Shown here: positions 61,054 to 61,755 of the stretch, one piece after another
Position numbering within the stretch: position 1 is the stretch's first letter
Layout of the letters: every line of letters begins with the position of its first letter
DNA from: Escherichia coli 042
GTDB taxonomy: Bacteria > Pseudomonadota > Gammaproteobacteria > Enterobacterales > Enterobacteriaceae
Assembly: GCF_000027125.1 (NCBI RefSeq)
Contig: NC_017626.1
Length of the DNA: 64,000 bases
Reading direction: 5' to 3' (one strand)
The notes under the pieces: model-generated
Databases searched by the model: none
The model's input: the letters and a program-made list of their open reading frames with translations, nothing else
Told to the model about the DNA's origin: nothing
Position numbers and translations under genes: made by a program

Positions 61054-61287
61054 ATGTCAACGAAGAACAGAACCCGCAGAACAACAACCCGCAACATCCG
61101 CTTTCCTAACCAAATGATTGAACAAATTAACATCGCTCTTGAGCAAAAAGGGTCCGGGAATTTCTCAGCCTGGGTCATTGAAGCCTGCCGCCGGAGACTG
61201 TGCTCAGAAAAAAGAGTTTCTTCTGAAGCAAACAAAGAAAAGAGTGACATTACTGAATTGCTCAGAAAACAGGTCAGACCAGATTGA
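61054..61287 (+). CDS. ynfO: Small ribbon-helix-helix-like DNA-binding protein
   Basis: 77-aa ORF; basic N-terminal tail then RHH-like pattern (RNIRFPNQMIEQINIALEQKGSGNFSAWVIEACRRRL). Confidence 0.7.
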   Translation: MSTKNRTRRTTTRNIRFPNQMIEQINIALEQKGSGNFSAWVIEACRRRLCSEKRVSSEANKEKSDITELLRKQVRPD

Positions 61288-61344
61288 AGCAATTTAGATA
61301 ATCGTGCAGACTACGCCCCCTCATATCACATGGAAGGTTTATCT

Positions 61345-61755
61345 ATGGATCAGGTAGTCATTTTTAAACAAATATTTGATAAAGTTCGAAACGATTTAAA
61401 CTATCAATGGTTTTATTCTGAGCTAAAACGTCACAATGTCTCACATTACATTTACTATTTAGCCACAGAGAATGTTCATATTGTATTAAAAAATGATAAT
61501 ACAGTGTTATTAAAGGGCCTAAAAAACATTGTGTCTGTCAAATTTTCAAAGGATAGGCATCTTATAGAAACGACCTCTAATAAGCTGAAATCCAGAGAGA
61601 TCACATTTCAGGAATACAGAAGAAACCTTGCTAAAGCAGGAGTTTTTCGGTGGGTTACAAATATCCACGAACAAAAAAGATATTACTATACCTTTGATAA
61701 TTCATTACTATTTACTGAAAGCATCCAGAAAACTACACAGATCTTACCACGCTAA
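61345..61755 (+). CDS. ydfO: DUF1398-family protein
   Basis: 136 aa from [24 protein letters not shown]...; 57 nt downstream of ynfO on the same strand. Confidence 0.75.

Follow-up and report, generated by a model that had tools for sequence, protein, structure and literature searches.

Independent distribution of ynfO and ydfO, adjacent genes beside cos in a Qin-like Escherichia coli prophage

Two small genes, ynfO and ydfO, lie near the end of the 64,000-nucleotide (nt) stretch of Escherichia coli 042 DNA analysed here (contig NC_017626.1; the whole stretch is referred to below as the window). At this end the window covers the right arm of a lambdoid prophage, complete and Qin-like, and positions 60650–62300 are 100% identical to E. 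coli KH_005 and 99.9% identical to Qin of K-12. Homologues of both genes are found in phage lambda and in most E. coli genomes, yet the function of neither is known. An initial annotation, made from the sequence alone, had described the two as same-strand neighbours next to cos and had likened them to type II toxin-antitoxin (TA) and small phage-defence or superinfection-exclusion operons. Its account of the layout was accurate: both open reading frames (ORFs) are where it placed them (Table 1), the YnfO sequence that it quoted is exact, the ynfO stop (61287) is followed by the ydfO ATG (61345) after 57 nt, and both genes run antisense to the late operon, 200 nt from cosN. It was also right that neither gene has an assigned function, none being reported for either family in the searchable literature.

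Table 1. Coordinates of features at the prophage right end in the window
Feature	Position	Strand	Description and basis
ynfO	61054–61287	+	77 aa, YlcI/YnfO family (DUF3950); ORF list, profile matches, annotated identical locus
Conserved N-terminal module of ynfO	61054–61203	+	Codons 1–50: basic arm, strand NIRFP, two helices
ydfO	61345–61755	+	136 aa, DUF1398; soluble pseudo-dimeric alpha/beta protein
Leader of the DUF1398 module	61272–61344	+	Palindrome GGTCAGACC 61272–61280; −10-like GATAAT 61297–61302; Shine-Dalgarno GGAAGG 61332–61337
Candidate operator region	60952–60993		Inverted repeat 60952–60964/60972–60984 (I5); perfect palindrome TTGATCTGCATCAA 60980–60993
terL	58220–60145	−	ORF list, annotated identical locus
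nohA/Nu1 small terminase gene	60120–60665	−	ORF list; RefSeq annotation of the 100% identical KH_005 locus
Repeats CGTTTCCTTTCT and inverted copies	60690–60802		Repeat search, families I1, I4, D2
cosN, 12-nt cohesive-end sequence GGGCGGCGACCT	60843–60854	−	Single exact match in the window, 0.01 expected by chance
Hairpin	61765–61791	+	7-bp stem TCCGGCT/AGCCGGA, 13-nt loop; read from sequence

The initial annotation had proposed checking whether DUF1398, the family to which YdfO belongs, co-occurs with ribbon-helix-helix (RHH) partners across genomes. When we ran this comparison, no such unit appeared; the genes are distributed separately, and ydfO shows no dependence on a partner. Searches of a phage collection with tblastn located the N-terminal domain of YnfO in 155 records and YdfO in 43. 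Across 5426 complete E. coli genomes we counted 9859 ynfO-type places against roughly 3500 of the ydfO/ybcV type (8900 DUF1398 places minus about one ycgX per genome); these counts are sampled rather than exact. YnfO-like genes are about three times as common as DUF1398 genes. A DUF1398 gene of some kind is present in 5375 of the 5426 genomes, and in many of them it is ycgX alone, which in E. coli stands solitary between bluR and iraM. A YnfO-like ORF within 3 kb was absent from all 18 distant DUF1398 loci, which came from Kluyvera, Klebsiella, Pseudocitrobacter, Raoultella, Salmonella diarizonae and metagenomes. Three further DUF1398 loci had unrelated chromosomal neighbours and no YnfO-like ORF, and one copy in another phage is flanked by Q and the holin gene. 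Solitary DUF1398 genes are also common among the chromosomal copies of Kluyvera, Klebsiella and Salmonella and in many Bacteroidota.

The position of the YnfO-like gene is constant. It comes last before the packaging module, from which it points away, and runs antisense to the late operon; this slot adjoins at least two unrelated packaging modules: Nu1/A in the window, lambda, PhiR11_1, ev207 and an O104:H4 prophage, and HNH-terS-terL in 2851, Stx2a_F349, Stx1_699, JLK-2012 and strain S12. In N47 and HKUOPY1 the neighbours are small-terminase genes annotated only generically and not compared with the other types. What follows ynfO varies, and may be ydfO, antisense ybcW with ybcV and bor, bor alone, or nothing before the lysis genes. 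The right-end accessory genes of lambda (bor, lambdap78, lambdap79 and a 64-aa ORF) include direct homologues of both YnfO and YdfO, with p78 79% identical to YdfO, on the same strand and in the same Rz–cos interval as in the window. In lambda, however, some 650 bp holding an antisense ybcW-like gene separate these homologues, with bor coming next, whereas the window has a shorter join and carries gnsB, ynfN and cspI in place of bor. The spacing of about 650 bp with an antisense gene is also seen in DLP12-type and Tritos arrangements, and the Qin-type arrangement of ynfO and ydfO recurs in many E. coli genomes.

YnfO matches the Pfam family DUF3950 (PF13132) over residues 21–50 (E 5.1e-21) and the NCBIfam model YlcI_YnfO_N (NF041551) with 36.6 bits against a cut-off of 30. 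We aligned ynfO from the window, lambda, phage 2851, Stx phages and JLK-2012. DNA homology among these phage types begins at the ynfO ATG and ends near codon 50, and the flanks on both sides are unrelated. Between phage types, codons 1–50 have a synonymous divergence (dS) of 0.74–1.47 and a nonsynonymous divergence (dN) of 0.04–0.08, with dN/dS of 0.04–0.11. High dS together with low dN indicates a protein domain under strong purifying selection rather than a conserved DNA or RNA element. For ydfO, comparison with lambda p78 gives a dN/dS of 0.18, which again indicates purifying selection, and both are thus real genes. The C-terminal tails of YnfO are wholly different between phage types. This variability arises because the recombination junctions fall at codon 50, rather than from any tracking of a partner; whichever sequence follows the junction supplies the tail.

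The lambda homologue of YnfO is the 64-aa ORF at complement 48303..48109, which is 98% identical to YnfO across the first 51 residues. This ylcI-like ORF (48109–48303) lies 200 nt from cos and has no feature in either J02459 or NC_001416. Many database 'homologues' of YnfO are frameshifted lambda right-end DNA on contigs of ~3.5 kb, some of them filed under Staphylococcus aureus, Bacillus, a spider and 'Campylobacter phage', and including the phage records OR974317–OR974325 and MW057783. These contigs are probably sequencing-control contamination, and such entries inflate the apparent diversity of YnfO tails.

The initial annotation had also read an RHH signature in YnfO. The fold topology and the alignment register with Arc agree with that reading, if weakly, but no significant match to an RHH family was obtained. 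In the AlphaFold model of YnfO (residues 1–58), an extended segment (1–18) is followed by a helix (19–32), a turn at G33 and a second helix (34–57), with a predicted local distance difference test score of 85–89 in the core; a strand cannot be assigned by DSSP in this monomer without a partner chain. Alignment with hhalign places YnfO residues 10–33 on Arc 7–30, such that N14-I15-R16-F17-P18 falls on Arc N11-L12-R13-W14-P15 (Arc sequence checked against 1ARQ). The P value fell from 0.013 for a shallow alignment to 0.0034 when 88 family members were included and to 0.0011 for a diverse one. Mnt, NikR-N and RelB fall into the same register, with P 0.03–0.15. The PHROG 'HicB-like' profile matches YnfO with E 0.01 and a divergent Pasteurella relative with E 1.4e-4. 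Across the wider family I15, R16, F17, P18, I25, F37, S38, W40, V41 and C45 are invariant, and insertions and deletions are confined to the loop between the helices. A Pfam search of YnfO matched no RHH family, returning DUF3950 alone, and sequence and profile (hmmsearch) searches of PDB sequences found no RHH protein, only a chance match to a ribosomal protein. No single test of the fold is therefore significant. Taking the AlphaFold monomer and the weak profile alignments together, we think it likely that YnfO has the RHH fold, with codons 1–50 probably encoding an RHH DNA-binding domain.

Arc and Mnt of phage P22 (Pfam Arc family, RHH superfamily) resemble the probable form of YnfO in having, within ~50 residues, an N-terminal arm, one strand and two helices. 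Arc shares with YnfO the 15-residue spacing from the NLRWP segment (NIRFP in YnfO) to the glycine preceding helix B, and each of the three is a small gene within or beside a late operon. Mnt of P22 has its gene on the opposite strand, as does YnfO. The sequence match between Arc and YnfO falls short of significance, however (hhalign P about 1e-3, probability at most 21%), and unlike Arc and Mnt, YnfO has no known operator or target promoter and, in lambda and Qin-type phages, no partner antirepressor gene. The RHH antitoxins (ParD, VapB and the C-terminal domain of HicB) differ from YnfO in another respect, as YnfO has no conserved downstream toxin gene and is usually solitary.

YdfO matches DUF1398 (PF07166) over its full length (E 2e-46) and differs by one residue from the protein in PDB entry 2HH8. 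An alternative in-frame start, ATG 61330, would give a protein of 141 aa and is the start used in the 2HH8 construct. The ATG at 61345 is the likelier start because a GGAAGG Shine-Dalgarno sequence lies 7 nt upstream and because ATG 61330 is out of frame in lambda. The nuclear magnetic resonance (NMR) structure 2HH8 comprises two helix-helix-three-strand halves, between which a faint internal sequence repeat can be detected (P 0.0034). The fold is an orphan, and a search for structural neighbours of YdfO found no known toxin or nuclease. Foldseek returned at least 230 AFDB50 clusters with the YdfO fold, Bacteroidota included. YbcV (DLP12) and YcgX (chromosomal, beside bluR) are likewise DUF1398 proteins, presumably with the same fold, and have a related 5′ leader; YcgX differs from YdfO in having neither a phage context nor a YnfO-like neighbour.

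A leader of roughly 75 nt, starting from GGTCAGACCAGATTGAA (61272), is common to ydfO, lambda p78 (3682–3755 of the retrieved locus) and ybcV of Tritos (about 3425–3500 of its locus), and a diverged form lies upstream of the chromosomal ycgX. In the window this leader contains the last five codons of ynfO together with its stop. Since ynfO thus ends within the ydfO leader, the two genes are adjacent in the Qin type through a recombination join of a YnfO module with a DUF1398 module. From its sequence elements, the leader may act as a promoter of its own. The palindrome within it is listed as a PdhR site by genomic SELEX (systematic evolution of ligands by exponential enrichment), at both ydfO and ybcV of K-12 (PMC7660256).

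Phenotypic data for DUF1398 come from other studies. Lambda p78 was non-essential in a CRISPR interference (CRISPRi) screen, the targets of which did not include the unannotated ylcI-like ORF (PMC10695390). Over-produced YbcV (ASKA clone) caused a glycogen phenotype and not lethality (PMC2853380), and YdfO was over-produced alone for the NMR structure 2HH8, with no lethality reported. We rejected the labels 'head protein' (PHROG 413, RefSeq lambda) and 'putative envelope protein' that are attached to DUF1398 because YdfO is soluble in the NMR study, the gene is antisense to the late operon and its relatives are mostly non-phage. We also discounted the statement that YdfO raises oxidative-stress resistance (PMC4077768, PMC8711792), which is a mix-up with yfdO of the CPS-53 prophage; the source cited for it (PMC3105296) reports yfdO and never ydfO, and the mix-up has been copied forward. 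Some DUF1398 proteins appear to be fusions. In the AlphaFold Database entry A0A1G4V648 (Flavobacterium saliperosum, 638 aa), DUF1398 is apparently fused to a 2,3-bisphosphoglycerate-independent phosphoglycerate mutase, and members of 226–401 aa also suggest fusions that are possibly informative on function. Upstream of the chromosomal DUF1398 genes of Kluyvera, at a distance of about 230 nt, lies a conserved 74-aa ORF in divergent orientation (MLEGYFDLDGATG...; about 2530–2770, −, in the retrieved loci), for which NCBIfam gave no match.

YnfO has relatives in satellites of the phage-inducible chromosomal island (PICI) type. A weak tblastn match in Pasteurella phage Pmp7 (OR544138) proved to be a genuine, unannotated DUF3950 ORF of 59 aa (3001–3180, +, in the numbering of the retrieved locus). 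Searching with this relative returned members of 54–67 aa in Pasteurella, Actinobacillus, Yersinia, Salmonella and Proteus, and in Morganella, Providencia, Serratia, Xenorhabdus and Gilliamella. In each context that was examined, the satellite relative is the sole opposite-strand gene of an int-alpA-...-primase element, one Proteus form of which also has a capsid gene. Upstream of the gene (5001–5204 in the numbering of the retrieved locus) is a spacer of about 215 nt (about 4785–5000) with three GGTGTG-N4-CACC palindromes; in the Pmp7 locus, gene and palindromes fall within 2840–3180. Relative to the ATG, their positions are about −112, −89 and −42 in Yersinia and Salmonella and closely similar in Proteus, Actinobacillus and Pasteurella. 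The layout is that expected of an autoregulated repressor facing an operon promoter, with the palindromes as candidate operators. In work on Gram-negative PICIs, the named regulator is AlpA, an activator, and the global repressor is described as 'unclear' (PMC6092414). The Stl/Rpr master repressors of Gram-positive PICIs are alike in position and logic only. The satellite relatives of YnfO in Enterobacterales and Pasteurellales stand behind three palindromes in a spacer shared with the downstream half of the operon, and they oppose the direction of int-alpA-primase, but the Stl proteins are large helix-turn-helix repressors with no homology to DUF3950. In Pmp7 itself, the 59-aa ORF is antisense to a 224-aa coding sequence labelled 'transcriptional repressor', the sequence of which looks non-coding, and the strand was probably mis-called.

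Upstream of ynfO in the window, there are four copies of the motif ATCAA/TTGAT within 199 nt where 0.6 would be expected (p about 0.004), and an inverted repeat and a perfect palindrome make up a candidate operator region (Table 1). The 9-mer CCACGTCAA (60940–60948) is also upstream of ynfO. Its 8-nt core, CACGTCAA, is present in the middle operator-like site of 5/5 satellite loci and the full 9-mer in 3/5, with no significant alignment of the flanks; the sharing may be due to chance.

Weighing these observations, we lean towards the reading that ynfO and ydfO are two independent, separately mobile lambdoid accessory genes, one for an Arc/Mnt-like RHH regulator and the other a self-contained DUF1398 cassette. 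Such accessory gene cassettes in phage genomes are 'morons' in the sense of Hendrix and colleagues. Both genes vary in presence; for ydfO there is also a private leader, and its lambda homologue p78 is non-essential. Transcript data from K-12 imply expression in lysogens. The neighbourhood of the two genes in Qin-type prophages would then result from mosaic recombination and not from a functional two-component system. YnfO, with its basic arm, a strand formed by T12-R13-N14-I15-R16-F17 and two helices, would be made from the prophage strand, and its most likely role is that of a dimeric, DNA-binding regulator of transcription. The ydfO cassette, which carries a leader, a palindrome, a −10-like element and a ribosome-binding site of its own, would need no YnfO partner, and its soluble, non-enzymatic-looking product most likely binds a host component. 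Several observations weigh against this account. A promoter scan called no sigma-70-like site on the + strand upstream of ynfO or ydfO, and co-transcription, and hence some regulatory coupling, is possible in the Qin-type arrangement. No operator was identified for the phage branch of YnfO: the satellite motif is absent from the window, a matrix built from the satellite operators gave no site close to ynfO either here or in further lambdoid phages, and the upstream DNA of lambda-type, 2851-type and satellite genes aligned no better than shuffled sequence. The tolerance of YdfO over-expression is indirect evidence, drawn from other studies.

The reading put forward in the initial annotation, in which YnfO is the RHH antitoxin or autoregulator and YdfO the effector of a type II TA system or a small defence or exclusion operon, can draw on an RHH-like protein with a variable tail encoded 57 nt upstream of a ~140-aa protein on the same strand with no terminator between, on the weak 'HicB-like' match of YnfO, and on the presence of YnfO in nearly all YdfO-bearing phage records. 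We nevertheless regard it as the least probable of the accounts considered here, and very improbable in itself. Most YnfO-like genes have no DUF1398 neighbour, most DUF1398 genes have neither YnfO nor any other RHH neighbour, and an antisense gene separates the two in lambda, so that in place of the tight bicistronic operon of a TA system we find 57 nt here and ~650 bp with an antisense gene elsewhere. The frequent pairing in phage records is accounted for by the location of both genes in one short stretch, from the lysis genes to cos. No model in PADLOC-DB v2 matched YnfO or YdfO at E ≤ 1, the orphan fold has no nuclease or toxin neighbour, the ydfO leader is private, and YdfO (2HH8) and YbcV have each been expressed alone. 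A looser connection would be local regulatory coupling, with YnfO repressing ydfO or being co-transcribed with it in Qin-type prophages, the genes having separate origins and their products no dependence on one another. The terminator scan called nothing in the 57-nt spacer of the Qin-type arrangement, the ynfO stop falls within the ydfO leader beside the palindrome GGTCAGACC, and the arrangement is found repeatedly in E. coli genomes. However, the identical palindrome and leader are found where ynfO is far away or missing, as in lambda and Tritos, ycgX has a diverged form of them, and the sole factor reported on the palindrome is PdhR, from genomic SELEX, and not YnfO (PMC7660256). We therefore consider such coupling unlikely.

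Other alternatives concern YnfO alone. Because it always adjoins the packaging module (200 nt from cosN in lambda types, HNH-terS in others), and because one satellite relative abuts a Terminase_2 gene, YnfO might have a part in packaging DNA or in the working of cos, perhaps binding DNA near the genome end as an accessory protein, rather than in transcription. Set against this, the packaging genes are expressed from the late operon, to which ynfO runs antisense, neither the adjoining packaging systems nor the DNA separating them from ynfO are related to one another, and the satellite relatives are usually beside the replication operon and not a terminase gene, which leaves a packaging role very unlikely. 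We give equally little credence to the idea that YnfO acts like Mnt in immI of P22, as a prophage repressor whose target is an antirepressor or KilA-N gene nearby. The Arc/Mnt-like sequence register fits this idea, and genes for KilA-N, Bro-N, AntA, pRha or antirepressors are found within about 1–2 kb in several phages and satellites, but no such gene is nearby in lambda, the Qin-type window, PhiR11_1 or ev207, and no shared operator was found. A broader proposal, which we hold tentatively and with some doubt, is that DUF3950 groups Arc-like RHH repressors of mobile elements that have gone unrecognised as a family. The satellite member would be a prophage-state repressor acting on the three GGTGTG-N4-CACC operators, which would cover the promoter of the replication operon, and the lambdoid right-end copy would be a related regulator acting from the prophage strand on a target yet to be found.

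The finding is of modest interest overall. On the preferred reading of ynfO and ydfO as independent accessory genes, their separation guards against the spread of a wrong TA or defence annotation and gives two distinct questions, one per gene. For YnfO, the result is a concrete hypothesis of an Arc-like DNA-binding protein, unannotated in lambda, under very strong purifying selection and with family members also in satellites. For DUF1398, it is an orphan fold widespread in bacteria, copies of which are carried by enterobacterial phages.

The surrounding features are those of a lambdoid right end. The nohA/Nu1 gene heads the packaging module and is transcribed divergently from ynfO; on the minus strand it is followed by terL and then the portal gene. 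The repeats at 60690–60802 occupy the position expected of the Nu1-binding R sites of cosB, which from established knowledge of lambda we take them to be. An Rfam search matched nothing real. The hairpin directly after the ydfO stop could be a weak terminator, though it is without a T-run and the terminator scan did not call it. Neighbouring small ORFs were given no name by NCBIfam. Beyond ydfO, the late strand carries gnsB (61907–62083, −), ynfN (62252–62524, −) and cspI (62754–62966, −), and at the annotated identical locus ynfR and ymcF lie between ynfN and cspI. RefSeq labels GnsB, encoded on the strand opposite ynfO and ydfO, an 'addiction module toxin', and the pair thus has a gene annotated as a putative toxin for a neighbour.

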